Below, in pieces: positions 42,571 through 57,192 of a DNA stretch of 64,000 bases; position 1 is the first letter of the stretch; each line of letters starts with the position of its first letter. Made by a program: the position numbers and the translations under genes. Below the pieces are notes generated by a model. The model saw only the letters and a list, made by a program, of their open reading frames with translations. It had not been told where the DNA came from and did not search any database. The stretch is from Chloroflexota bacterium (GTDB taxonomy: Bacteria > Chloroflexota > Dormibacteria > CF-121), in NCBI GenBank assembly GCA_005889345.1, contig VBFR01000183.1:1315-65314 (forward strand). The letters are read 5' to 3'.

Positions 42571-44085
42571 ATGCGCCAGCCATCATCGCCCCGTCACCTG
42601 CTGTCAAGCGTTCGCCCCGCGATGGCGGCCCTGCTAGCAGCGGGCGGCCTGGCGCTGACGATCGTGCCTGCTGTGCCCGCCTGGGCGGCCTCCAACCAGG
42701 CCCATCTCGATCGTCAGGTGCTCAAGGCGATGCAGGCGGGACGGTCCATCCGCGTCATCGTGGTTGCCCGCGGCGATCTGAACATCCTGCAGTCCGATCT
42801 GCGGCGCACCGGTCTGGAACATACCGTGCGTGTCCCGATTGCCCACGGCATCGCCGTCGAGCTGACGCCCGCGCTGATCGACCACTTCCGCGTGGACGCG
42901 AACGTCGCACGTCTGATCTATGACGCACCCGTCACGCTCAGCGATACCCCCTTCAACCCAACGGCGCTGGCGACCGCCTATCCGGCGGTTGCGGACGCGG
43001 TGACGATCTGGAGCAATCCGGTGGCGCCGCTCACCGGGCAGGGGATCGGGGTCGCTGTCATCGACAGTGGCATCGCCTCACACCCCGACCTGGGGGATCG
43101 CATCATCGCGAGCCAGGACTTCAATCCGAACGTCACCGGCACGGATGACGCGTACGGCCACGGCACCGCAGTTTCCGGGATCATCGCCGGGGATGGCACG
43201 GCGAGCCTGGGACAGTACATCGGCGTGGCACCGCAGGCGAACCTCATCAACCTCCGGGTCAACGACGGCACCGGCGGCGCGCCGACCTCCGCCATCATGA
43301 ACGCCATTCTCTGGGCGGTCGTCAACAGGAAGACCTACAACATCCGCGTGCTTAACCTCTCGCTGCAGGCGTCGGTGCAGGAGAGCTACCGCACCAGCGC
43401 GATCGATGCCGCCGTCGAATATGCGTGGCTGAAAGGCCTCGTCGTGGTCGTGGCCGCGGGTAACAGCGGGCCCGACAGCGCGCTCTATGCGCCGGCGAAT
43501 GATCCATATGTGATCACGGTTGGGGCGACCGACGACCAGGGCACCCCCTCGACGGCCGACGATGCGCTGGCGAGTTTTTCGAGCTATGGACTCACCCAGG
43601 ACGGCTTCACCAAGCCGGACGTCGTCGCGCCCGGCCGGCGGATCATCACCACGCTGGCACCGAACAGCAGTTTCGCGCTGAACTACCCGAGCTTCATGGT
43701 TGGCACGCAGTACATCCAGCTGAGCGGCACCTCGGTGGCGGCCCCGGTGGTCAGCGGAGCGGCGGCGCTCTATATCGAGAGCAATCCGACCGTGCGTCCA
43801 GGCCAGCTCAAGGGCGTGCTCCTCGCGACCAGCAACCACCTCGCGCTCACCGGTACCGGCGCGGGGTATCCGGACGTCGCGCATGCCATCGCCTATCCCG
43901 GCCTGCTCGGCAATGCCGACCACGGCCTCGACCCTAACAACTACCTCAAAGTCCTCTACATGGCGGCCAAAAACCTGACGACCATGCCGCTGGTCTCCTG
44001 GGATACCGTCTCCTGGGACACCGTTTCCTGGGACAGCGTCTCCTGGGATAGCGTCTCCTGGGACGCCGTGAGTTGGGGTAGCTAG
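42571..44085 (+). CDS. S8 family subtilisin-like serine peptidase with N-terminal propeptide and C-terminal (SWDxV)x6 repeat
   Basis: Catalytic Asp (AVIDSGI), His (HGTAVSG) and Ser (GTSVAAP) motifs, and a signal peptide. Confidence 0.85.
   Translation: MRQPSSPRHLLSSVRPAMAALLAAGGLALTIVPAVPAWAASNQAHLDRQVLKAMQAGRSIRVIVVARGDLNILQSDLRRTGLEHTVRVPIAHGIAVELTPALIDHFRVDANVARLIYDAPVTLSDTPFNPTALATAYPAVADAVTIWSNPVAPLTGQGIGVAVIDSGIASHPDLGDRIIASQDFNPNVTGTDDAYGHGTAVSGIIAGDGTASLGQYIGVAPQANLINLRVNDGTGGAPTSAIMNAILWAVVNRKTYNIRVLNLSLQASVQESYRTSAIDAAVEYAWLKGLVVVVAAGNSGPDSALYAPANDPYVITVGATDDQGTPSTADDALASFSSYGLTQDGFTKPDVVAPGRRIITTLAPNSSFALNYPSFMVGTQYIQLSGTSVAAPVVSGAAALYIESNPTVRPGQLKGVLLATSNHLALTGTGAGYPDVAHAIAYPGLLGNADHGLDPNNYLKVLYMAAKNLTTMPLVSWDTVSWDTVSWDSVSWDSVSWDAVSWGS
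43993..44082. repeat. 6 x 15-bp tandem repeat encoding VSWDT/VSWDS pentapeptides
   Basis: Direct inspection of the sequence. Confidence 0.8.
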
Positions 44086-46799: not shown

Positions 46800-47387
46800 T
46801 TGGCGCCGCTCGGGCCGATCACGCTGACGGGGAGCCACATCCGATTGGAGCCGATGCGTCCTTCGCACGCGCCGGCCCTTCTCGAGGCCGGGCGCGATGA
46901 GGGCATCTGGACCTGGATGCCGGCCCGTCCGCTGACGGCGGAAACGATGGACCGTTGGCTCGAGAAGGCGATGCATGCCGAGTCCCAGGGTCGCGAGTAC
47001 CCCTTCGTTGTCGTCCGCCTCGTGGACAACCGGGTCATCGGCAGCACCCGGTACCTCGACGTCCAGGGGGACGATCGGACCGTCGAAATCGGCTGGACCT
47101 GGTATGCGCCGGATGCCTGGGGCGGCGTCGTCAATCCCGAGGCGAAGTACCTGCTCATGCGCCATGCCTTCGATGACTGGCACGCCATCCGGGTGGCGTT
47201 GAAGACCGATATCAACAACCTGCACTCCCAGGCGGCCATCAAGAAGCTTGGCGCCCGCTACGAGGGGACGCTTCGCAACCAGCGCATCCGTCCGGACGGG
47301 AGCTATCGCGATACGGTGATCTTCTCCGTGATCGAGAGTGAGTGGCCGGCGGTCAAGGCCGGGCTCGAAGAACGCTTGCGCGCCTAG
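46800..47387 (+). CDS. GNAT N-acetyltransferase (RimJ/RimL-like)
   Basis: IGWTWYAPDAWGGVVNPEAKYLLMRHAFDDWHAIRVALKTDINNLHSQAAIKKLG. Confidence 0.7.
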   Translation: MAPLGPITLTGSHIRLEPMRPSHAPALLEAGRDEGIWTWMPARPLTAETMDRWLEKAMHAESQGREYPFVVVRLVDNRVIGSTRYLDVQGDDRTVEIGWTWYAPDAWGGVVNPEAKYLLMRHAFDDWHAIRVALKTDINNLHSQAAIKKLGARYEGTLRNQRIRPDGSYRDTVIFSVIESEWPAVKAGLEERLRA

Positions 47388-47899
47388 CTCTTCCCGCCGT
47401 TAAGGACGCGAAGGCCTGCTGGATTCTCTTTAGCTGGCGAATTTTCGGCCGCCATCTCGAGTGGCAGGGTCATCGTGGACGCACTCGCTTTTTCCCTCCT
47501 CCGCTTGCCGGGCCCGTCGGCCCACGCGAGCGGCGCTCGGGGCGTCGCCCCACGCGAGTGGCGCTTGAGTGCCACACGAGCGTTTGAGACGTTAGTGCCA
47601 GGCGAGCGTTTGAGACGTTCGGGGAGGGTCAGGGAGGGGGTTGCCTCAGCGGGAAGGTTCGGGCTGGGCGCTTCCTTGCGCCGCGTCCGATAGCCGCTGG
47701 CGACCTTGGCCGTCGCCGCCTGGGCGGCTGCGATCACCTCGGAAGCAGACACGTCCGGGTTGGCGAGCGCCTCCAGATCGAATGGGACCATTTCGCTGAC
47801 GCAAATCTGGCGCTGCGGGTCGATGATCACGACCGCGACAAAGGGCTCTTGACTTGTGATGCTCGGATGGATCTGTGACCACGGAATGACATTGCCCAT
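47384..47899 (-). CDS. hypothetical ORF; only the first about 85 codons look credible, and the 3' part runs through a MITE-like repeat
   Basis: The N-terminus MGNVIPWSQIHPSITSQEPFVAVVIIDPQRQICVSEMVPFDLEAL is preceded by the conserved 23-nt palindromic motif. Residues beyond about 85 are encoded by the repeat at 47491-47640. Confidence 0.35.
   Translation of the reverse strand: MGNVIPWSQIHPSITSQEPFVAVVIIDPQRQICVSEMVPFDLEALANPDVSASEVIAAAQAATAKVASGYRTRRKEAPSPNLPAEATPSLTLPERLKRSPGTNVSNARVALKRHSRGATPRAPLAWADGPGKRRREKASASTMTLPLEMAAENSPAKENPAGLRVLNGGKS
47491..47640. repeat. MITE/REP-like palindromic element, copy B (with internal duplications)
   Basis: TTTCCCTCCTCCGCTTGCCGGGCCCGTCGGCCCACGCGAGCGGCGCT...GCGAGCGTTTGAGACGTT x2...CGGGGAGGGTCAGGGAGGGGG; homologous to 29857-29952. 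Confidence 0.7.
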
Positions 47900-47915
47900 G
47901 ACGGGAGCCTAACCC

Positions 47916-47938
47916 GCCGTTTTGACAGCTGTCTGTCG
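47916..47938 (-). promoter_or_regulatory. conserved 23-nt palindromic motif CGACAGACAGCTGTCAAAACGGC (core TGACAGCTGTCA), about 17 nt upstream of the 47899 ORF start
   Basis: Identical 23-mer, in the same orientation relative to its gene, at 55991-56013 upstream of rmuC. Confidence 0.5.
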
Positions 47939-47943
47939 CAGCG

Positions 47944-50900
47944 TCAGCCGCTCGGGACTTCCTCTTCGACCTCGTCGCGGCTGGACCCGTTGGCCTGCGC
48001 CTCCTCAGCGGAGGCAGGAACGAGCGAGGGGCCAGGCAACCGGATGATGGTCCAGTCGTCGGCCTTCTCGGCGCGGTCGGCGAGCGCCTCGTCCTTCGAG
48101 AACAAGATCACCTGGTGGTCGAGGCGGCCGAGTTCGTTCATCGCCGCGGTCAGACGGCGCCGGTCGGCGTGAACCAGCGCTTCGTCCAGCAGCAGAGGCG
48201 GTGGCTCCGCGTTTCCGCCGATAATGCGCGCCAGCGCCAGCCGCTCGAGCAGGTAGATCAGGGAGCGCGTGCCCAGGCTGAGGTTGTCGACATCCTTATA
48301 AGTCCGCTGGTCCTGCGTGCGGACCTGCAACGCGAGGTCTTCGCCGATGCGCACATCGCGATAGCGGCCGTTCGTGATGGGGGAGAGCTGACCCTGGAGT
48401 TGCGACTTCAGCCTGGGGATCACGGCCCGCCGCACCGATTTCGCCGCGGCTTCGAGCGTTTCGATGGCGAGGTCGTAGGCGTGGGCCTCGGCCTCGAGCT
48501 CCTGCAGCTGTTCGCGGGCGGTTGCGATCTCCTCCTCGAGGGTGGCCACGTCCCCGATCTGGGTCAGCCGATCGTTCAGTAACTCCTCCGCCCGCGCCCG
48601 TTCCTCCTGGGCGCGCTCCTTCGTACCGCGGTGCTGGTCGCGCTGCCGTTCGAGCTCGGCGAGTGGCAACGCCGCGAATTGCGCCACCGCGGCAGGGTCC
48701 ACGCTCCGGCTGGTCTCCTCGAGCTGGCGCGTCAGGTCGTCGACGAGCTGTCGCAGCGACGCCCCTTCGTCGTTGGCAGCGGTCCCCCGTTGCGCTTCCA
48801 GCTCGGCGAGGCGAGCGCTCGATGCGCGGTAGGCCTCGGCATGACCGACGCCGGCCTCCCAGGCCTGGGATGCGCGCTCCATGTCGGTGTCGTCGATGCC
48901 GGCCGGCGTGTAGATGGCCGCGAGCTGACGAGCGTAGTCATCGGCTTTGGTGCGCTCGGCGACCGAGCGCTGTCCCGGCGCCCGGAGTTGCTCCAATTGC
49001 GCGTCGAGCTGCTCGATCCGGGTGCGGACCTGCTGGGCGGTGCGCGCGGCCTCGCAACTCGCGATGAAGTCGCGGGCGGCACCGAGCGCCTCCCGCCGGT
49101 CGAAGCCCAGCTGGTCGAGCAGGCTGTGCAGCCGCTGCCGAAGCGACTCGCGTCGCTGGTCCAGCTCGGATTCGGCACGGGACGCATCCTGTGACCGCTC
49201 GCTGGCGGCGTTCCAGGCGAGCGTGTCCTGGGCGAGCGACTCGATCTCACGCGCCGTCTCGTCGACGGCCTCTTCGGTGGGCGCGGGCTGCGGAAGTCCC
49301 CACGACCCGACCAGCTCGCGAAGGCTGCGACCCGCAATCTGGGCCCGCTCCTCCAGCTCGGTAGCCTGGCGGTCGAGTTCGAGACGGGTGGCGTCGTAGC
49401 GCACCTTCTGCAGGTGCTCGACCAGGGCCTGCTGGAGTTCCGCTGAGCTTCGCACCCCCCACGGCTGCAGGATCTCGCGCCGTTTGATGCGAGCCTCGTC
49501 TTTCGCCCGCAAGCGGCGGTCGACCTCACGAACCGCGGCCCCACGGACCCAGATGCCGATGCCCGTCGAGAGGACCCCCATGCCGAGCAGGAAGAACGCG
49601 GCGCCGGCCAGCAGAATCGTGCCGTTGCTCTGGAGCGCGAGGAAGGCGACCAGGATCGCGAGTGCTGTCAGCAGAAGGCCGCCCAGCATCGCGCCGAGGA
49701 AGGTGCGCTGCCGGCTGCGAGCCCGCTCCGCCATCGCTTCCTCGCGTCGCATCGCCTCCTCGGCTTGCTGGCCGGTCTTGATGACGTCGGGGACTTCCTT
49801 GTAGCGGGCGATGTCGTGCTTGAGCTGCTCGAGGCGTGGTGGGAGCTCGGCGCCGGCGCGGCGGCGTGCCTCGAGGGCGACGTTGTGGCGCTCCCGCCAT
49901 TCGGAGAAGACGCGCTGGAACTCCATCTGGCGCGCGGGCCAGTCCAGGTTGTTGCCGATCAGGCCCGGGTGCCGCTCCGCGATCCGGCGAGCCTCCTCCG
50001 CCGCGGTCTGGGCGCGGAGGTGGACGTCGGGCGCCTGGGTATCGGCGACATTCAGGGTGGAGAGAAGCTCACGAACCGTGGGTTCCTGGGCGAGGGCGGC
50101 GTCGTCGATGCCACGGGCTCGCGTTTCGTGCCCCTGTGCCTCCGTTTCCAGCTTCTGGCGCTCGGCGTCCAGCTGCTGCACCTGGGCCGTGCTGTCGGTG
50201 GCGCGACGTTCGAAGTCGGCCTGGGTCTCGCGAGTAGCCCGCAGGTGGCTCCGCAGGTCCTGAACCTCTGCCTGGCGGTCGAGCGGGAACATCGCGAATC
50301 GGGTGTGCTGCTCCTGCCGGCCGCGTTCCTCCGCGATCGCCTGCTCCAATGCGTCGACCCGCTCCAGCCGGTGACGCGCATCCTGCAGCCGGGATGCCAG
50401 CAGGGCGGCCTCGAGCGTTTGGACGATGCCCAGCTCGGCTTCGGTGAGCGCCGAAACGGTCTCCCGCTTCTGGGCGAGCTCATCGACCGCGGCGCGAGCC
50501 TGCCGCGCGGCGGCGAGCTGTCGCTCCAGCTCTGTCAGGCGAGCCTCGAGATCGTGCAACGGGCCGGTCCGCCCGCGTGGTTTGCCGATTCGATGGGTCC
50601 GTTCCTGGCGCAACCGGTCGAGAACCTTCTGCGCGGTACGGTCGGGATGCGCCGAATCCGCAAGGGCGATGATCGCCTCCTTGATGGTGCCGGCGTCTTC
50701 CAGGCGCAGCACCTCGCTGCGCGAAATGCACGCGGTGTTGGTATAGATATCGCGGCTGACGCCGAGCAGCTGCCGTCCCACCTGCAATCCGCCCGACGCA
50801 TCGTGGTCGAAGCGGTCGCCGAGCTCGGCACCGGTGCTGATGTCGAAGACGCGAACCGTCTCGGCGTCCAGATCGCGCTCCACGCGGAGCTGCGTCCCGT

Positions 50901-51153
50901 CCTCGAGCACGACGTCGAGGACCAGCCCGAAGTTGCCGCCCTGCCACGGGCGCCAGCGGTCGGCGCGCTCCACCAGCGCCGAATGGGCGCGATCGGCGGA
51001 CTGCAGTCCATAGAGGCCGGTCACGATGGCCTCCTGCAGCGTCGACTTGCCGGCCTCATTGGGTCCGACGACGAGGTTCATCGTCGGCCCGAAGTGCAGC
51101 TCCATGCCGGAAAGCGTGCCGAAGCCCTCGATCTCGATCCGGGTTAAGCGCAC
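47944..51153 (-). CDS. SbcC/Rad50-like AAA ATPase with central transmembrane helices (YhaN/COG4717-like)
   Basis: N-terminal Walker A VVGPNEAGKST, long coiled coils, two or three TM helices (LLLTALAILVAFLAL; LLGMGVLSTGIGIWV), and a C-terminal signature/Walker B region (LLLDEALVHAD). Confidence 0.8.
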   Translation of the reverse strand: MRLTRIEIEGFGTLSGMELHFGPTMNLVVGPNEAGKSTLQEAIVTGLYGLQSADRAHSALVERADRWRPWQGGNFGLVLDVVLEDGTQLRVERDLDAETVRVFDISTGAELGDRFDHDASGGLQVGRQLLGVSRDIYTNTACISRSEVLRLEDAGTIKEAIIALADSAHPDRTAQKVLDRLRQERTHRIGKPRGRTGPLHDLEARLTELERQLAAARQARAAVDELAQKRETVSALTEAELGIVQTLEAALLASRLQDARHRLERVDALEQAIAEERGRQEQHTRFAMFPLDRQAEVQDLRSHLRATRETQADFERRATDSTAQVQQLDAERQKLETEAQGHETRARGIDDAALAQEPTVRELLSTLNVADTQAPDVHLRAQTAAEEARRIAERHPGLIGNNLDWPARQMEFQRVFSEWRERHNVALEARRRAGAELPPRLEQLKHDIARYKEVPDVIKTGQQAEEAMRREEAMAERARSRQRTFLGAMLGGLLLTALAILVAFLALQSNGTILLAGAAFFLLGMGVLSTGIGIWVRGAAVREVDRRLRAKDEARIKRREILQPWGVRSSAELQQALVEHLQKVRYDATRLELDRQATELEERAQIAGRSLRELVGSWGLPQPAPTEEAVDETAREIESLAQDTLAWNAASERSQDASRAESELDQRRESLRQRLHSLLDQLGFDRREALGAARDFIASCEAARTAQQVRTRIEQLDAQLEQLRAPGQRSVAERTKADDYARQLAAIYTPAGIDDTDMERASQAWEAGVGHAEAYRASSARLAELEAQRGTAANDEGASLRQLVDDLTRQLEETSRSVDPAAVAQFAALPLAELERQRDQHRGTKERAQEERARAEELLNDRLTQIGDVATLEEEIATAREQLQELEAEAHAYDLAIETLEAAAKSVRRAVIPRLKSQLQGQLSPITNGRYRDVRIGEDLALQVRTQDQRTYKDVDNLSLGTRSLIYLLERLALARIIGGNAEPPPLLLDEALVHADRRRLTAAMNELGRLDHQVILFSKDEALADRAEKADDWTIIRLPGPSLVPASAEEAQANGSSRDEVEEEVPSG

Positions 51154-51183
51154 GCTGGCCTCACCACGGCCGCCAGGCTGGCG

Positions 51184-52278
51184 TCATTCCTCGAAGGCAT
51201 CGAGGGCGAGCTGCAACGCGCGGCCGACCGCCTGCTCCTCCTGGCGCGACCCCTGCTTGTGGTCAACCAGCTTGCGCACCATTTCGCCCCGACTGGTGAA
51301 CTCCTGCGCGGCGGCCTCGAGGTCGTGCGACACGCGCGACTGGTCGCGAAACTCGAGATAGGCGAAGCCATCACTGCACTCCCGCGAGAGCACCTGCGGA
51401 TCCAGGATCAGCGAATGGGCGCGCTCGCCGGTCAGCGTGGCACGGATGACGGCGCCATCGAGGTGTTTCTCCTCGCGCATCGCTTCGACCGCGTCGCGAA
51501 CGTGATCGATGCTCGTCATGCCGCTGACGTCGATCGTTTCCTGGGCGAACTGCCGCTGGTTGATGTCTTCCAGCAACACCTGGAGGCCGCCATCGTCGCC
51601 GATCGTCAGCAGCGCCGTGCAATGACGTCCGGATTCATTCCACCCGAGCGGCTCCGGGCTGCCGGGATAGGTGATCGACTCCGACCTCCGGGCGTCGTGA
51701 TAGTGGCCGAGCAGCGCGTGACGGAAGCCGGCCTCCTGGACCTGGGCGGGCAGGATGGGCTTGTAGGGGGTCACGTCCTGCGGGACCTGGCTCATGTCCG
51801 AGGCATGGAGCAGGAGGAGGTGCGTGCCGTCCTCGCGCCGGGCGAAATCACGCAGCGGCGCCTCCGGCACGTCCGATCGCATGAAACCCGCGGTCCAGAT
51901 CTCGACGTTCGCATAGCGGTAGGGTCGCAGATCCTCGTGCGTCGCGACCGTGACATTGTCAGGCCAGCGCAGGTATCGGTATGGTGAGCTCGGCACGGCC
52001 GGATCGGCGTGGCCGGGGGCGATCAGGACCGGGAGCCCGGCGTCGCCCAGGGTCTGGACGATGAAGCTTGCAGTGTCGCGCGTGACGTGATCGTGCTCAA
52101 AGAGATCGCCACCGCAGGTGAGCACGTCGGCCTGAGCCTCCCGAGCGCGTTCGACGATCCGTTGAAGGGCCGCCCGAAGATCCTCGCGGCGTCGTTGGGC
52201 GCCGACGCCATAGAGGCGCTCACTCGCGAAGGATCGATCGAGATGCAGGTCAGCGAAATGGAGCAGGCGAAGGGCCAC
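51184..52278 (-). CDS. SbcD/Mre11-like metallophosphoesterase (YhaO-like DNA repair exonuclease)
   Basis: LHFADLHLD...GGDLFEH...calcineurin-like phosphoesterase motifs; sits immediately upstream of the ATPase gene. Confidence 0.8.
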   Translation of the reverse strand: MALRLLHFADLHLDRSFASERLYGVGAQRRREDLRAALQRIVERAREAQADVLTCGGDLFEHDHVTRDTASFIVQTLGDAGLPVLIAPGHADPAVPSSPYRYLRWPDNVTVATHEDLRPYRYANVEIWTAGFMRSDVPEAPLRDFARREDGTHLLLLHASDMSQVPQDVTPYKPILPAQVQEAGFRHALLGHYHDARRSESITYPGSPEPLGWNESGRHCTALLTIGDDGGLQVLLEDINQRQFAQETIDVSGMTSIDHVRDAVEAMREEKHLDGAVIRATLTGERAHSLILDPQVLSRECSDGFAYLEFRDQSRVSHDLEAAAQEFTSRGEMVRKLVDHKQGSRQEEQAVGRALQLALDAFEE

Positions 52279-52416
52279 AAATCCCCCGTAACCACGCGAA
52301 TTGTGCCTGGCGCGATGGCATAAGCAGCGCGAAAGCAGCGCCCATTATAAAGGTTGCGCTGAATTTGTTCCGAATCAGCCGGCGCCGCGATAACAGCATC
52401 TAGACTGAGGGACGAA

Positions 52417-53379
52417 GTGGGCTCGTTCGAGAAGGGGGATCGCGGGGCCCGGATCCTCAAGATCCAGACGCTGCTCCAGGGCAATCCCCACGGTTTGACG
52501 ACCGGCGAGATCGCGCGCCGCAGCGGCGTGAATCCGCGCACCACCTATCGCGACATTCGGGCGCTCGAAGCGATGAACGTGCCGGTCTACGAGGACAACG
52601 GCCGGATCGCGATCGACCCGAACTACTTCGTAGCGCCGGTCAAGTTCACCTTGCGCGAGGCGATGGCGCTCCTCATGGGCGTTCGCCTGATGCACCGGCA
52701 TCGCGACCAGGCGGATCCGGACGTCGCCGACGCCTTCACCAAGCTGGCGGCGGTCCTGCCCGCGCCGGTCGCGGAGTACGTGCACGCCACGGTTCGTCAG
52801 ATGGCCGATCGTCCGTCCAACCCGACGTACTCGCGCGTCCTCCAGACGGTCGCGCTCAGCTGGGCGGGGCACAGGGCGGTGCGCATCTGGTACCCGAGCG
52901 CGAACCACGAGGTGAAGCCGCGCGAGATCGAACCGTATTTTCTCGAGCCCTCGCTGATCGGGCACAGCAGCTACGTGGTGGCGCGCGATCGCGGACTGCG
53001 GGAGATGCGGACCTTCAAGCTGGAACGGATCACGCGGGCCGAGCCAATGTCCGAGACCTATCAGATCCCGCCTGAGTTCGAGGTCAACAAGTACCTGGCC
53101 GGAGCCTGGGGCATCTACCACTCCGGCGAGCCGGTAGAGGTCAGACTGCGCTTCTATCCACCGGCGGCGGCTCGCGTGAAGGAATCGATCTGGCATCCAT
53201 CGCAGAAGCTCAGCGATGGGCCGAGGGGCTCGGTCAACATGACGGTGACGGTAACCGGGACGCTCGAGATCACCCCGTGGATCCTGGGGTGGGGCGACGC
53301 CGTCGAAGTGCTGGCGCCCGCGGACCTGCGCAAGAAGATCAACGAGGTGGGCACGAAAATGGCCTCCCGCAACAAGTAA
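52417..53379 (+). CDS. HTH-WYL-domain transcriptional regulator (PafBC/YafY-like)
   Basis: N-terminal HTH ILKIQTLLQGNPHGLTTGEIARRSGVNPRTTYRDIRAL, and a WYL region AVRIWYPSANHEVKPREIEPYFL. Confidence 0.8.
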   Translation: MGSFEKGDRGARILKIQTLLQGNPHGLTTGEIARRSGVNPRTTYRDIRALEAMNVPVYEDNGRIAIDPNYFVAPVKFTLREAMALLMGVRLMHRHRDQADPDVADAFTKLAAVLPAPVAEYVHATVRQMADRPSNPTYSRVLQTVALSWAGHRAVRIWYPSANHEVKPREIEPYFLEPSLIGHSSYVVARDRGLREMRTFKLERITRAEPMSETYQIPPEFEVNKYLAGAWGIYHSGEPVEVRLRFYPPAAARVKESIWHPSQKLSDGPRGSVNMTVTVTGTLEITPWILGWGDAVEVLAPADLRKKINEVGTKMASRNK

Positions 53380-53440: not shown

Positions 53441-53806
53441 ATGAGCGTTTATCAGGTAGTCGCGAAATTGAAGCCCACGAAGATCTGGGAGGGGGTGCTC
53501 GGCCGCGTGGTCAACGGAGAACGGCTCACGATCGGGTTCGTCGACATCGACCCCAACGCGCAGGTTCCGGAACACCGGCACGAGAACGAGCAGGTCGGAT
53601 TCGTCCTCCGCGGTTCGGTGACCATGGTGGTCGACGGTAACGCGCGCGAGCTACGGGTGGGGGAGACCTATACGATCGCCAGCCAGCTTCCCCATTCGGC
53701 GAAGGCTGGGGGGGACGGCGTGTCAGTTGTTGACGTCTTCGCGCCGGTTCGCCAGGACTGGAAGGACAAGCCGACCGTCGAGCCGTTTCCCGGACGCTGG
53801 CCCTGA
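53441..53806 (+). CDS. cupin domain protein
   Basis: AGGAGG RBS; PEHRHENEQVGFVLRGSV...GETYTIASQLPHS cupin motifs. Confidence 0.7.
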   Translation: MSVYQVVAKLKPTKIWEGVLGRVVNGERLTIGFVDIDPNAQVPEHRHENEQVGFVLRGSVTMVVDGNARELRVGETYTIASQLPHSAKAGGDGVSVVDVFAPVRQDWKDKPTVEPFPGRWP

Positions 53807-53807
53807 G

Positions 53808-54599
53808 TTAGAACAGGCCCCGATACTCTCCGCCGTCGACCGCCAGCGTCGTTCCGGTGATGAAGCTGGCCGCGTCGCCAGCCAGGAAGACGACCGCGGC
53901 CGCCAGCTCGTCAGGCCGTCCATGGCGGCCCAGCGGGATGTTGCGGATGCTGCGCGCCGTGTACTCCCCGGGGTCGACGCCGAGCGTGATCGCCTGGTGG
54001 CGGTTCTCCTCCCGGATGCGGTCGGTCTCGAAGCGGCCGGTGAGGATGGAGTTCACCCGAACCTCGGGGGCGGCCTCCTTCGCCAGGGTCTTTCCCATGG
54101 CAACCACGGCCGGCCGCAGCGCGTTCGAGAGCACGAGGTTGTCGACCGGCTGATGCGCCGCGATCGAGGTGAGATTGACGACGGCGCCTCCATCACGCCG
54201 CAGCGCCGGCAGGGAGGCGCGCGTCAGGCGAACGGCGCTCATGAACACCAGGTTGAAGGCCTCCGCCCACGCCTGGTCGTCGAGTTCCGCCACGGTCCCG
54301 AGGATGGGCCCGCGCGTGTTGTTGACGAGCACCTCGAGGCCGCCGAGCGTTTCGACCGCCCATTCGACGAGGTCGCTGCACTGGTCGGGTTGGCGGACAT
54401 CGGCGACCCGCGCGACGACGTCATAGCCCTCGTCGCGCAGCGTCTTCGCTGCGGCTCGGATGCGCTGCTCATCGCTCGAGGAAATGGCCACGCGACAGCC
54501 CTCCGCGGCGAGCGCCCGCGCCGAAGCGAACCCGAGGCCCCGACTGGCCGCGGTCACCAGCGCGCGTCGTCCGCGAAGTCCGGTTTCCACCGGGGACAT
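53808..54599 (-). CDS. SDR family oxidoreductase
   Basis: TGxxxGxG in ALVTAASRGLGFA, and the catalytic YxxxK region. The start is set at the internal Met MSPVETG. Confidence 0.8.
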   Translation of the reverse strand: MSPVETGLRGRRALVTAASRGLGFASARALAAEGCRVAISSSDEQRIRAAAKTLRDEGYDVVARVADVRQPDQCSDLVEWAVETLGGLEVLVNNTRGPILGTVAELDDQAWAEAFNLVFMSAVRLTRASLPALRRDGGAVVNLTSIAAHQPVDNLVLSNALRPAVVAMGKTLAKEAAPEVRVNSILTGRFETDRIREENRHQAITLGVDPGEYTARSIRNIPLGRHGRPDELAAAVVFLAGDAASFITGTTLAVDGGEYRGLF

Positions 54600-54624
54600 A
54601 CTAGGAGCGGCGCGATGCCCTAGG

Positions 54625-54834
54625 CTAGGCGGCGAGACGCGGTTGCTTGCCGCAGGCGGGGCACGGCGTTCCCGCCTTGAGTTCGGCCCGCTTGAAGGCG
54701 TGTCCGCCGCAATGCGGGCAGAGCGCGCCGGGACGGAGGGGAGCGGCTTGCTCCGCCTTCTGCATGCGCTCACGGAGATGACTGTCGTCTTCTTTCTCGA
54801 TGAAGCGCGGATCGGTAGGCGTCTGGGTGCTCAT
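54625..54834 (-). CDS. small zinc-ribbon protein (69 aa)
   Basis: CPHCGG...CPACGK. Its start overlaps the upstream gene's stop by 4 nt. Confidence 0.5.
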   Translation of the reverse strand: MSTQTPTDPRFIEKEDDSHLRERMQKAEQAAPLRPGALCPHCGGHAFKRAELKAGTPCPACGKQPRLAA

Positions 54835-55679
54835 GCGGCCTTCAGCTCGTGTGGCTGGAACTGCTCCGGCCGCAGCCGGTCGCCGATGGCACGGCCGATG
54901 ACTTCCGGATGGAGCTCGACGCCGCGCTGGAAGGGGTGGACGCTCAGGATCGCGGGCACGGTTCGGTCGCCCAGCTTCACGTCGAGCACCCGGCCGTGCA
55001 AGGTGGTCATCCGACCCCAGCCATCCCAGGTTTGAATCGTCCGCCACCAGAGATGGCGGGCGACCGGACCGCCCATGGCGACGACCAGCTGCGGGTTGAT
55101 GCTCGCGAGCAGGCTCTGCAGGTGGCGGTCGACACACTGGTTGACGGCGTCATCGATAACCAGGTCCGGGTTTGCCGTGGGGCAACGGACGGCCCAGGTA
55201 TGGAAGGCGAGGTCCATGACGTCGTGCTTCTCCGGTTTCTGCCCGAGCCGGCGGCGCGCGTTGAGCAGCACCGCCCGTACGAATTGGTAGTAAGGCTGCG
55301 GCGTGTCCGATGTCATGTGGTGCTCGAGTCCGGATTCGTGATCGAGCCACTCGCTGAAGGCCTCGTTGCTGGCGCTGGCGGCATCCAATGGGCTGGGGCT
55401 GATGAACACGATGGGCGCCTGCGGGTTCCCGAACCCGATCTCCGGCCGGCGCAGCGGCTCAGCCAGTCCAGCGCAGGGGCTGTCGGCGCCCCGGTCCGCC
55501 TCGGCGATTGCGCAGCCGTGCAGCCGCTTGAGCGCGTCCGAGCCGAAGAACTGCAGGTACTGCTGGCCCTTGCTCACGCTGTGAAAACGACGCGCGGTGG
55601 CCGGTGAAGCTTGCGCCCCGGCGGCTAAGATTTCTCGGTGGCCCAGGTTCCCGGGATCGACGTCAGCCAGCTCCGGCAA
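54831..55679 (-). CDS. uracil-DNA glycosylase superfamily protein
   Basis: IGFGNPQAPIVFISPSP motif A-like and a C-terminal HPF motif (SVHPFQRG). The start is probably internal, because the ORF overlaps the rhodanese gene on the other strand. Confidence 0.55.
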   Translation of the reverse strand: MPELADVDPGNLGHREILAAGAQASPATARRFHSVSKGQQYLQFFGSDALKRLHGCAIAEADRGADSPCAGLAEPLRRPEIGFGNPQAPIVFISPSPLDAASASNEAFSEWLDHESGLEHHMTSDTPQPYYQFVRAVLLNARRRLGQKPEKHDVMDLAFHTWAVRCPTANPDLVIDDAVNQCVDRHLQSLLASINPQLVVAMGGPVARHLWWRTIQTWDGWGRMTTLHGRVLDVKLGDRTVPAILSVHPFQRGVELHPEVIGRAIGDRLRPEQFQPHELKAA

Positions 55680-55990: not shown

Positions 55991-56013
55991 CGACAGACAG
56001 CTGTCAAAACGGC
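55991..56013 (+). promoter_or_regulatory. conserved 23-nt palindromic motif CGACAGACAGCTGTCAAAACGGC upstream of rmuC
   Basis: Exact copy of the motif at 47916-47938; lies 75 nt upstream of the rmuC GTG. Confidence 0.5.
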
Positions 56014-56088
56014 CTGCTTGACTTTGGGAGTGAGCCAAACCACCATTGACACGACCAACCGTCCTTTTCACGTCCTGAAGGAGTCCAA

Positions 56089-57192
56089 GTGAGCGTCCTC
56101 GAACTGGTCCTCGCGGTGCTACTGGTCGCCACCCTGATCTGCCTTGTCGGCCTGCTCCTCCGGCGGCCGGCCGCGACCGCTCCCTCTGACGCGGTGCTGG
56201 CGGCGCTCACCGATCTGGGCGCCCTCAGGTCACACGTCGAAACCGTCAGCAATCAGCAGAGTGCACTGAGTCAGTCGCTCAGCATGGTGCAGACGGCGGT
56301 TCAGGGCGTTGAGACCAAAGTGCTCGAAAGCTCGGCGGGCGTCCGCGATGCGATCGGGAAAGACCTGTCCGACGCACGCGTCGCCATGGAACGTTTGAAG
56401 GCCGACGCTGAAGAGCGCCGCCGCATGGAAGAGGACGTGCAGGCCTCAGCGCGCCGGATCGAGACCGTCCTGCTCGGCAGCCGCACACGTGGTGCGGCCG
56501 GCGAGAACATCCTTCAGGACGCGTTCCGCCAGTTTCCCGCTGAGATGATCGACATGAACTTCCGGGTCAACGGCAAGGTCGTTGAGTACGCGCTGGTCCT
56601 GGCCAACGGCAAACGGCTGCCGATCGATAGCAAGTGGCCATCCCCGGAATTGCTCGACCGGCTCAGCGACGGCTTGCAGGAGCCGGGCAAAGAGACGACG
56701 CTCGTCCAGGAGATCGAGCGAGTCCTGCGGCTGAAGGTGCGGGAGGTCAAGCAGTACATCGATCCGGCGGCGACGCTCGGCTTCGCCGTGGCCGCCGTTC
56801 CCGACCCGGTCTTCAACGCCTGCCGTCGCGCCCACCTCGAGGCCTATCGCGAAGGGGTGATCCTGATGCCCTACAGCATGACCATCCCCTACGTGCTGGC
56901 CCTCTTTCGCCTGCACCTGCAGTACGCGAAGTCCATCGACATCGAAAACCTCGAGGGCTACTTGCAGCAAATCGACGATAACGTCGCCGCGCTCGATCGC
57001 CTGCTCGAGAACAGCATTGCGCGTGGCAGCACCATGATCCAGAACGCCTTCACCGACGCTAAGCGCAACCTGGGACAGATGCGGGGTGCGCTGGCCGCCA
57101 TGCGCGCGGTGCCGCAGGCGGCCTTGGGCCAGGAGCCGGACATCGACCAGGTCGACGAGCCCGACCTCCAGTTGCTGATCTCCCGCCGCTAA
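56089..57192 (+). CDS. rmuC: DNA recombination protein RmuC
   Basis: AAGGAG RBS; N-terminal TM helix, coiled coil, and an RmuC C-terminal nuclease-like domain (LVLANGKRLPIDSKWP). Confidence 0.8.
   Translation: MSVLELVLAVLLVATLICLVGLLLRRPAATAPSDAVLAALTDLGALRSHVETVSNQQSALSQSLSMVQTAVQGVETKVLESSAGVRDAIGKDLSDARVAMERLKADAEERRRMEEDVQASARRIETVLLGSRTRGAAGENILQDAFRQFPAEMIDMNFRVNGKVVEYALVLANGKRLPIDSKWPSPELLDRLSDGLQEPGKETTLVQEIERVLRLKVREVKQYIDPAATLGFAVAAVPDPVFNACRRAHLEAYREGVILMPYSMTIPYVLALFRLHLQYAKSIDIENLEGYLQQIDDNVAALDRLLENSIARGSTMIQNAFTDAKRNLGQMRGALAAMRAVPQAALGQEPDIDQVDEPDLQLLISRR

Follow-up and report, generated by a model that had tools for sequence, protein, structure and literature searches.

Does a pair of genes that resembles SbcCD (Mre11-Rad50), encoded opposite a regulator with a WYL domain, serve the repair of chromosomal DNA or the defence against foreign DNA? 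The question is raised by a three-gene locus (47944-53379) on contig VBFR01000183.1 of a Chloroflexota bacterium (GCA_005889345.1, class Dormibacteria). The locus was analyzed within a stretch of 64,000 nucleotides (nt), referred to as the window, and all positions are window coordinates. It encodes an ATPase related to Rad50 and the structural maintenance of chromosomes (SMC) proteins, a phosphoesterase related to Mre11 and SbcD, and a divergently transcribed transcription regulator. An earlier note, made from the sequence alone, had claimed these three genes and left the choice between repair and defence open; all three open reading frames (ORFs) were found at these coordinates, and the checks that the note had proposed favor repair through the synteny of the locus, the absence of plasmid and phage copies, the housekeeping genes around it, and the relationship of the regulator to DriD, PafB, and PafC. 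The best reading of the locus is a damage-responsive repair module and not a defence system. In its full form, this reading describes a membrane-tethered SbcE/SbcF machine that processes DNA ends in the manner of Mre11/Rad50 and is probably controlled by a regulator sensing single-stranded DNA (ssDNA) in a LexA-independent damage response; we consider it somewhat better than evenly supported.

An SbcE/SbcF-Type Pair and Its Predicted Membrane Hairpin

The phosphoesterase gene is located directly upstream of the ATPase gene on the same strand with a gap of 30 nt, and an intergenic region of 138 bp separates this operon from the divergent regulator gene (table 1). The ATPase matched the Pfam families AAA_23, AAA_27 (PF13514), and SbcC_Walker_B (amino acids [aa] 931-1006). 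A hidden Markov model search for COG4717 and PF13514 had been proposed by the earlier note, and PF13514 scored above its gathering cut-off (43.7 bits vs. 22), with an alignment that covers only the first 57 of the 206 model positions. The closest solved relatives in a sequence search of the PDB were Rad50 head domains, and the NCBIfam Rad50 and SMC models matched far under their cut-offs (39.9 vs. 700 for Rad50 PRK03918). The Rad50/SbcC-like ends described by the earlier note (GPNEAGKST and LLLDEA) were thus recovered in agreement with Pfam and the PDB: the Walker A residues G30, N32, E33, G35, K36, and T38 are invariant down to relatives with 22-36% identity, and L989 and D990 of Walker B are invariant across the whole family. 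An AlphaFold2 model (42 homologues as input, mean predicted local distance difference test score of 75) had Smc5/6, condensin, JetC, MukB, and Rad50 as its top structural matches. Overall, a head of two Rad50-type halves, a pair of long coiled-coil arms, and an apical two-helix hairpin make up the ATPase.

Transmembrane (TM) segments were called by Kyte-Doolittle hydropathy with a 19-aa window. Two hydrophobic segments (aa 484-507 and 511-536, peak 2.6) were identified in the ATPase with only Q-S-N between them. In the AlphaFold2 model, the helices 454-508 and 513-565 are linked by a four-residue turn, and the hydrophobic segments correspond to the tips of the coiled-coil arms. Two to three TM helices had been expected in the middle of the coiled coil; a predicted membrane segment is present, and hydropathy together with helix ends joined by a short turn indicates a hairpin of two helices rather than three. 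The sequence on both sides of the hairpin segments is rich in Arg and Lys, which fits a cytoplasmic location of both coiled-coil arms. No CxxC hook was found anywhere in the ATPase, and the hairpin takes the place of the zinc hook at the apex.

A phmmer search against 1.84 billion cluster representatives identified a total of 4,791 SbcE-type ATPase clusters (E<=1e-10), and the nearest ATPase relative outside the Dormibacterota clade displayed only 36% identity. A hydrophobic segment of TM strength was present at mid-length in 101 out of 124 full-length distant relatives (24-36% identity), none of the 124 contained a central CxxC motif, and the hairpin was also found in most complete ATPase ORFs of distant metagenome loci. 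The remaining 23 out of 124 relatives (~19%) form a sub-group without the hairpin. The TM hairpin is a trait of the whole YhaN family and is not peculiar to the Dormibacterota locus. A literature search limited to CC-licensed (Creative Commons) papers found no paper on a membrane hairpin in SbcE/SbcF. In a few of the hairpin-less relatives (e.g., P0278 and P0299), the mid-length position is occupied by an amphipathic helix rich in Arg and Trp, which may anchor the protein peripherally to the membrane.

Membership of the pair in the SbcE/SbcF family (YhaN/YhaO; COG4717, PF13514) is supported by the Pfam and COG assignment and by the shared architecture. PF13514 was listed on nearly all full-length homologues, and many of these are labeled “uncharacterized protein YhaN” by the Joint Genome Institute (JGI). 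In Bacillus subtilis, SbcE (YhaN) is an SbcC-like SMC protein with heptad regions of ~300 aa and a “unique central domain” that lacks a CxxC motif, is hydrophobic in its first half and is completely insoluble; SbcF (YhaO) is its SbcD-like partner, the mutants show sensitivity to double-strand breaks and a slight defect in transformation, and foci of the proteins appear at the competence pole (PMC2811018). The Bacillus yhaONM genes belong to the LexA SOS regulon and are induced by damage (PMC2731908, PMC3896406). The Dormibacterota pair resembles Bacillus SbcE/SbcF in its Rad50/SbcC-like heads, long coiled coils, hydrophobic center without a CxxC hook, SbcD-like phosphoesterase gene directly upstream, and apparent link to the DNA-damage response; the likeness to YhaO/YhaN that was proposed earlier is upheld by the PF13514 score, the JGI names, the gene pairing, and the hook-less hydrophobic center. 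The pair agreed with the described family in each feature that was compared. Unlike in yhaONM, no yhaM-type gene is located downstream, where a gene for a clade-specific small protein (orf171) is found instead, and no LexA box is present, with the divergent WYL regulator in its stead. The pair also differs from its SbcE/SbcF relatives in motif III of the phosphoesterase (GHAD, not GNHD), and identity outside the clade is ~22-36%.

The canonical SbcCD and Mre11-Rad50 complexes share with this pair the homologous heads, the antiparallel coiled coils, and the combination of an ABC-type ATPase with a calcineurin-like phosphoesterase in one operon. They differ from it in the apex (TM hairpin vs. 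CxxC zinc hook), in motif III, and in the signature and H-loop regions, which are altered family-wide (LSxGT, FSKD), and the pair scores far under the NCBIfam equivalog cut-offs. SbcE/SbcF is already known and named, and the locus is a member from an uncultivated phylum and nothing categorically new; its variant features are WYL rather than LexA control, the GHAD motif, the absence of yhaM, and a nearby conserved box with PafBC geometry (see below). The family is nevertheless a large branch of the Mre11-Rad50 superfamily with experimental study only in Bacillus. A TM hairpin that regularly occupies the zinc-hook position raises the question of how a Rad50-like clamp with a membrane-fixed apex would close and work, and on which DNA it acts, incoming DNA or the ends of a broken chromosome close to the membrane. 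The family-wide replacement of hook by hairpin deserves experimental attention.

The Phosphoesterase and Its Altered Motif III

The gene product preceding the ATPase is an Mre11/SbcD-like phosphoesterase, as the earlier note had claimed. It matched Pfam Metallophos and displayed weak full-length similarity to SbcD and Mre11, weak matches to SbcD chains in the PDB, and NCBIfam scores under the cut-off (sbcd, 43 vs. 77.65; Mre11_Halo, 39.5 vs. 550). A PADLOC scan of the protein gave no match at all. Motifs I (DLH), II (GD), IV (H), V (GHYH), and VI are intact. In an alignment of 63 family members, motif III reads G[H/N][A/S/T]D in all of the Dormibacterota loci compared (29 out of 29 from GTDB) and canonical PGNHDP in nearly all distant relatives (~50). 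The phosphoesterase is 65-93% identical across related loci, which indicates strong purifying selection, and judging from the alignment the Dormibacterota clade has lost the motif III histidine despite this otherwise strong selection.

Vertical Inheritance within the Dormibacterota

Homologues at 63-100% identity were found in metagenome-assembled genomes (MAGs) of Candidatus Dormibacterota, the soil phylum to which the bacterium with the present locus also belongs. Synteny of the three genes and their flanks was counted wherever the contig reaches far enough. The loci of 31 GTDB species share the same gene order over ~15 kb with 72-94% identity: S8 protease, membrane protein, GGDEF protein, small ORF, DUF2269, GNAT, orf171, ATPase, phosphoesterase, and divergent WYL regulator, followed beyond the regulator by cupin and short-chain dehydrogenase (SDR) genes in some species only, a uracil-DNA glycosylase (UDG)-like gene, rhodanese, and RmuC. 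The same locus was found on 13 close metagenome contigs, and the WYL gene is present in each of the 11 that extend upstream of the phosphoesterase gene (11/11). A chance arrangement can be dismissed, as the same order recurs in every Dormibacterota locus with a long enough contig. A tBLASTn search revealed no ATPase homologues in 72,556 plasmid or 50,697 phage records. The rest of the window encodes housekeeping functions (cysteinyl-tRNA synthetase, 2-oxoacid dehydrogenase E2, a solute-binding protein, transporters, and a histidine kinase), and neither mobile-element nor defence genes were found in the surroundings of the locus. Based on the shared synteny, the absence of plasmid and phage homologues, and the housekeeping window, the locus is a vertically inherited chromosomal core cluster and not a patchy defence island; the comparison of presence and absence across relatives, which the earlier note had suggested, thereby gave a core and syntenic locus in 31 species.

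The wider family was examined in 67 distant metagenome loci. In nearly all of them where the upstream DNA was recovered, the phosphoesterase gene is located directly upstream of the ATPase gene, often with an overlap of a few bases. A WYL regulator profile matched in Dormibacterota loci only (0/67 distant loci), although this profile was built from close relatives and very divergent WYL proteins may escape it. Adjacency of a WYL gene was therefore rejected as a family trait: the profile and the comparison of distant loci indicate that the hairpin and the gene pairing define the family and that the WYL neighbor is an acquisition of the clade. In distant loci, the pair has varied neighbors that are unrelated housekeeping genes (prfA, ABC transporter, CoA-transferase), apart from one OLD-like ATPase. 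The gene for this ATPase (locus L063, 3910-5763, minus strand) is divergent from the pair; by eye, its product looks like an ATPase of the OLD/AAA_15 type whose C-terminal region resembles TOPRIM, and no other defence-like neighbor was seen among the distant loci.

A Regulator Related to DriD and PafBC

The divergent gene had been described as an HTH-WYL regulator, and this class assignment is right: the Pfam domains are HTH_11, WYL, and WCX. The only solved relatives found by sequence are DriD (phmmer E 7e-16, full length), PafC (2e-10), PafB, and PafBC, all of them damage regulators that sense ssDNA, and none of the BrxR or CapW chains in the PDB matched even at E<=10. The published ssDNA contacts of DriD (PMC10853764) were mapped onto the regulator by alignment. 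Eight out of 11 contact residues are identical (Y168, R178, Y192, R204, and Y240, corresponding to Y159, R169, Y186, R198, and Y234 of the regulator) or conservatively replaced (R176, W206, and R207, corresponding to K167, F200, and K201), and three differ (S172, R189, and R288, replaced by N, H, and L). R37 and R41 of DriD, the arginines that read bases, align with R41 and R45 of the regulator. Since most DriD contact residues are kept, ssDNA sensing by the regulator is plausible.

The winged HTH-WYL-WCX architecture is common to the regulator, DriD, PafBC, and SiwR, and DriD and PafB/PafC are the closest solved sequences. SiwR is a local WYL activator of the adjacent operon under genotoxic stress (PMC10693628), and like SiwR the regulator is encoded by a single gene beside its putative target operon. 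Its identity to DriD is low, and unlike PafBC it is not part of a pafB-pafC pair and not located by a Pup-proteasome locus, its neighbors being the cupin, SDR, and UDG-like genes. CapW and BrxR have the same domain architecture and are likewise divergent from the operon they control; they differ in that their solved chains give no detectable match, that the operon next to the regulator is no recognized defence system, and that the locus is core rather than patchy. In PADLOC, the strongest match of the regulator was to the N-terminal third of the Cas3c model (2.8e-79), and the WYL model, also Cas-associated, matched at 1e-38. The Cas3c model evidently holds a fused WYL regulator, which explains the odd JGI name “Cas3” on some homologues. 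Homologues of the regulator are often called 10-35 aa longer upstream (330-356 aa); these longer starts are probably wrong.

The Divergent Promoter Region

The intergenic region was aligned across 25 related loci plus the window. A TATAAT hexamer, the candidate -10 element of the phosphoesterase-ATPase operon, is essentially invariant and was found in every aligned locus (offset in the alignment in L029), ~65 nt before the phosphoesterase start. A consensus promoter scan gave no -35/-10 pair at this TATAAT, and no -35 element was recognizable. The center of the pseudo-palindrome GCTGATT-N8-ATTCAGC, a candidate operator, is located ~22 bp upstream of the TATAAT center, and the pseudo-palindrome with its inner part CGGAAYAAAYTC occurs only once in the window. 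Its position resembles that of DriD sites overlapping the -35 position; promoters that depend on DriD combine a clear -10 with a 7-N7-7 palindrome covering the -35 position and have no -35 element (PMC13004042). The -26 region is required for SiwR and PafBC (PMC10693628). In its combination of a -10 with a palindrome in the -35 position and no -35 element, the candidate promoter is similar to the targets of DriD, PafBC, and SiwR.

On the other strand, a TAnACT-type hexamer is located 7-11 nt ahead of the regulator start codon in most aligned relatives (TAGACT, 10 nt before the GTG start, in the window), which suggests that the regulator mRNA is leaderless or near-leaderless. The 5′ untranslated region of the operon (~60 nt; 52279-52343, minus strand) is nearly invariant, though the encoded proteins are only 65-70% identical between species. 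An RNA element in this region was not supported: RNAalifold gave 20 pairs with essentially no covariation, and there was no Rfam match at E<=1.

The mycobacterial PafBC promoter (RecA-NDp) has the sequence TGTCRGTG-N8-TAnnnT. This motif, which the earlier note had proposed to look for, is not present in exact form at the locus promoter; a single match with one mismatch was found in the 64-kb window (37271, before an unrelated gene), which corresponds to the chance level. The DriD box (ATACGAC-N7-GTCGTAT) was not found at the locus, and the Gram-positive LexA (Cheo) box (GAAC-N4-GTTC) was not found in the window. An inverted repeat CAGCGC/GCGCTG around the -10 was taken as chance, as its upstream arm is not kept in relatives.

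A Conserved Box Shared by orf171 and rmuC

An identical 20-nt box, CGACAGACAGCTGTCAAAAC, is located ahead of orf171 and ahead of rmuC, on either side of the locus, and the two copies sit inside a 22-nt identity. The 10-bp palindrome within the box occurs exactly two times in the 64-kb window (0.05 expected), and every related locus examined has the box unchanged ahead of both genes. The spacing before orf171, TGTC-N12-TAnnnT, equals that of mycobacterial PafBC promoters, and the arrangement TGTCAAAA-N8-TAGGCT before orf171, with TTGACT before rmuC, has a geometry like that of PafBC-dependent promoters. The box also holds CGAC-N8-GTCA, which is near the DriD core CGAC-N7-GTCG (PMC10853764). It was not found in the promoter region of the regulator itself. 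The shared box suggests that orf171 and rmuC, which flank the locus, are under the control of a WYL-type activator.

The product of orf171 has 338 homologues, all unnamed, and consists of a nearly invariant N-terminal part of 75 aa, a disordered linker of hypervariable sequence, and a C-terminal tail (LRVLNGGK) that is conserved. In a structure model, only the N-terminal 75 aa are folded (beta-hairpin and long helix); a fold search in the PDB gave no match with E<0.1, and no match was found in Pfam, NCBIfam, or PADLOC. The gene was rejected as a third gene of the operon since it is inverted together with its promoter, as a 400-bp unit, in 6 out of 31 species, and it therefore represents a separate transcription unit, possibly a co-regulated one. 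The position of TAGGCT 6 nt before the ATG makes the orf171 mRNA appear leaderless.

A Proposed Damage-Responsive Repair Module and Its Alternatives

As a repair module, the locus could operate as follows. The hairpins of two ATPase protomers would associate in the membrane and replace the zinc hook as the joint at the apex. With the coiled coils closed via membrane-embedded hairpins, heads and nuclease would be placed at the membrane, where they would process DNA ends held near its inner face. Damage-derived ssDNA would bind the WYL domain and switch the regulator, which would act at the pseudo-palindrome ~22 bp upstream of the -10 center in the -35-less promoter and raise expression of the operon, either by activation (as DriD, PafBC, and SiwR do) or by relief of repression (as with CapW). 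WYL control would in this way correspond functionally to the control of yhaONM by LexA in Bacillus; one regulator would have been replaced by another, with a WYL ssDNA sensor in Dormibacterota where Bacillus has LexA. Repair is favored over defence by the core synteny, the absence of plasmid and phage copies, the housekeeping flanks, and the fact that DriD, PafB, and PafC are the sole solved relatives of the regulator; the RmuC and UDG-like genes in the neighborhood were also counted in its favor.

Several points weigh against the repair module as described. We infer both the membrane insertion of the hairpin and the regulation of the operon in the Dormibacterota clade, and the evidence for a core locus comes from the MAG contigs of a single clade, not from complete genomes. 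The link between WYL gene and operon is lineage-specific, given the absence of WYL adjacency in distant members, and the class of the regulator cannot by itself separate repair from defence since CapW also senses ssDNA (PMC11662680). The operon could simply be constitutive given its perfect TATAAT, the inner part of the pseudo-palindrome is kept in close relatives and not in more distant ones, and the known WYL boxes (RecA-NDp and DriD) are missing at the locus. Finally, the loss of the motif III histidine (GHAD) makes canonical exonuclease chemistry uncertain.

This last point could mean that the phosphoesterase is catalytically impaired in the clade and that the complex is mainly an ATP-driven, membrane-bound DNA tether or sensor instead of a nuclease. 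The divergence of motif III between all 29 Dormibacterota loci and the ~50 distant relatives with GNHD fits this proposal, as does the role of the motif III histidine, which in Mre11 (H85 in Pyrococcus) is needed for exonuclease activity. However, the metal-binding motifs I, II, IV, and V and also motif VI are intact in a protein under strong purifying selection (65-93% identity), a His in place of the Asn might still coordinate metal, and other calcineurin-like phosphodiesterases function with a residue other than His at this position, all of which makes an impaired enzyme very unlikely. An anti-phage or anti-plasmid nuclease, tethered to the membrane at the site of DNA entry and released on infection from a CapW/BrxR-type WYL repressor, has several observations in its favor: defence systems are often under the control of WYL regulators, which sense ssDNA (PMC11662680), the regulator has the strong PADLOC matches to Cas-associated WYL models (Cas3c N-terminal part and WYL), the ATPase has a partial match to LmuB (1.4e-16), SMC-like ATPases occur in Lamassu and Wadjet with JetC among the structures that the ATPase model resembles, and SbcE of B. 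subtilis collects at the competence pole, the site of DNA entry (PMC2811018). We nonetheless regard defence as quite improbable, considering that the locus is syntenic in all 31 related species loci with neither plasmid or phage copies nor mobile-element or defence genes around it, that distant family members are found in housekeeping contexts such as prfA, that the PADLOC matches of the ATPase are mostly to the generic P-loop N-terminus with none for the phosphoesterase, and that the nearest solved relatives of the regulator are damage regulators.

A third possibility concerns only the targets of the regulator and is compatible with the repair module, not exclusive of it. The regulator might mainly target orf171 and rmuC via CGACAGACAGCTGTCAAAAC, with the operon constitutive or otherwise controlled and the divergent position of secondary importance. 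The identical and invariant boxes, the excess of the palindrome in the window (2 vs. 0.05), the PafBC-like spacing before orf171 in combination with the need of SiwR and PafBC for the -26 region (PMC10693628), and the DriD-like core in the box (PMC10853764) are consistent with this idea, and the operon promoter has a full-consensus TATAAT and no such box. It is rather unlikely all the same: WYL regulators usually autoregulate, whereas this regulator has no copy of the box in its own promoter region, the divergent layout of regulator and operon is kept at near-constant spacing in every locus covering it, TTGACT before rmuC is a poor -10, and the box could belong to another regulator elsewhere in the genome. 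Combining these targets with the repair module gives a compact, LexA-independent damage regulon of Dormibacterota in which the WYL factor drives the GHAD-type SbcE/SbcF pair and, via CGACAGACAGCTGTCAAAAC-N7--10, rmuC and the leaderless small protein. We put this forward tentatively and give it about one chance in a few. If true, WYL promoters of the “sigma-adaptation” type would exist outside the Actinobacteria, and the membrane hairpin would generally stand in for the zinc hook of Rad50 in ~4,800 protein clusters (E<=1e-10). The conserved promoter box could also help to define the first damage regulon of this uncultivated phylum.

Coordinates and Neighboring Genes

The positions of the genes, motifs, and candidate regulatory elements are listed in table 1. 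The RmuC gene is syntenic where related loci reach it, and the UDG-like gene, a marginal match, is also syntenic.

Table 1. Features of the Locus and Its Flanks in Window Coordinates
Feature	Position	Strand	Basis or remark
SbcE/YhaN-type Rad50/SMC-like ATPase, 1069 aa	47944..51153	-	ORF; Pfam; Rad50 heads in PDB; AlphaFold2 fold; homologues (63-93% identity) across Dormibacterota
Walker A (P-loop) GPNEAGKST, aa 30-38	51040..51066	-	translation
Predicted TM helical hairpin, aa 484-507 and 511-536, loop QSN, coiled-coil apex in place of zinc hook	49546..49704	-	hydropathy; AlphaFold2
Walker B PLLLDEA, aa 986-992 (LLLDEA, aa 987-992), catalytic Glu present	48178..48198	-	translation; Pfam SbcC_Walker_B
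SbcF/YhaO-type Mre11/SbcD-like metallophosphoesterase, 364 aa	51184..52278	-	Pfam Metallophos; NCBIfam below cut-off; weak PDB SbcD matches
Motif III GHAD, aa 89-92, in place of GNHD	52003..52014	-	family alignment
wHTH-WYL-WCX transcription regulator, 320 aa	52417..53379	+	Pfam HTH_11, WYL, WCX; PDB DriD, PafC
Divergent promoter region of regulator and phosphoesterase-ATPase operon	52279..52416	.	alignment
Candidate -10 TATAAT of phosphoesterase-ATPase operon	52344..52349	-	alignment; putative promoter function
Pseudo-palindrome GCTGATT-N8-ATTCAGC, candidate operator	52358..52379	.	sequence; putative binding
Candidate -10 TAGACT of regulator gene	52401..52406	+	alignment; putative
orf171, clade-specific small protein, own transcription unit	47384..47899	-	338 homologues, all unnamed
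Invariant 20-nt box ahead of orf171	47919..47938	-	then N7, TAGGCT (47906-47911), 6 nt, ATG
Identical 20-nt box ahead of rmuC	55991..56010	+	then N7, TTGACT (56018-56023)
RmuC-family DNA recombination protein	56089..57192	+	Pfam RmuC 1.5e-11
UDG-superfamily protein	54831..55679	-	Pfam UDG 24.3 bits, exactly at cut-off

Only about one half of the related species have the cupin and SDR genes (53441-54773), which represent the sole variable spot of the neighborhood. An S8 subtilase (42571-44085, plus strand) carries a series of SWD(T/S/A)V repeats (VSWDTVSWDTVSWDSVSWDSVSWDAVSW) at its C terminus.

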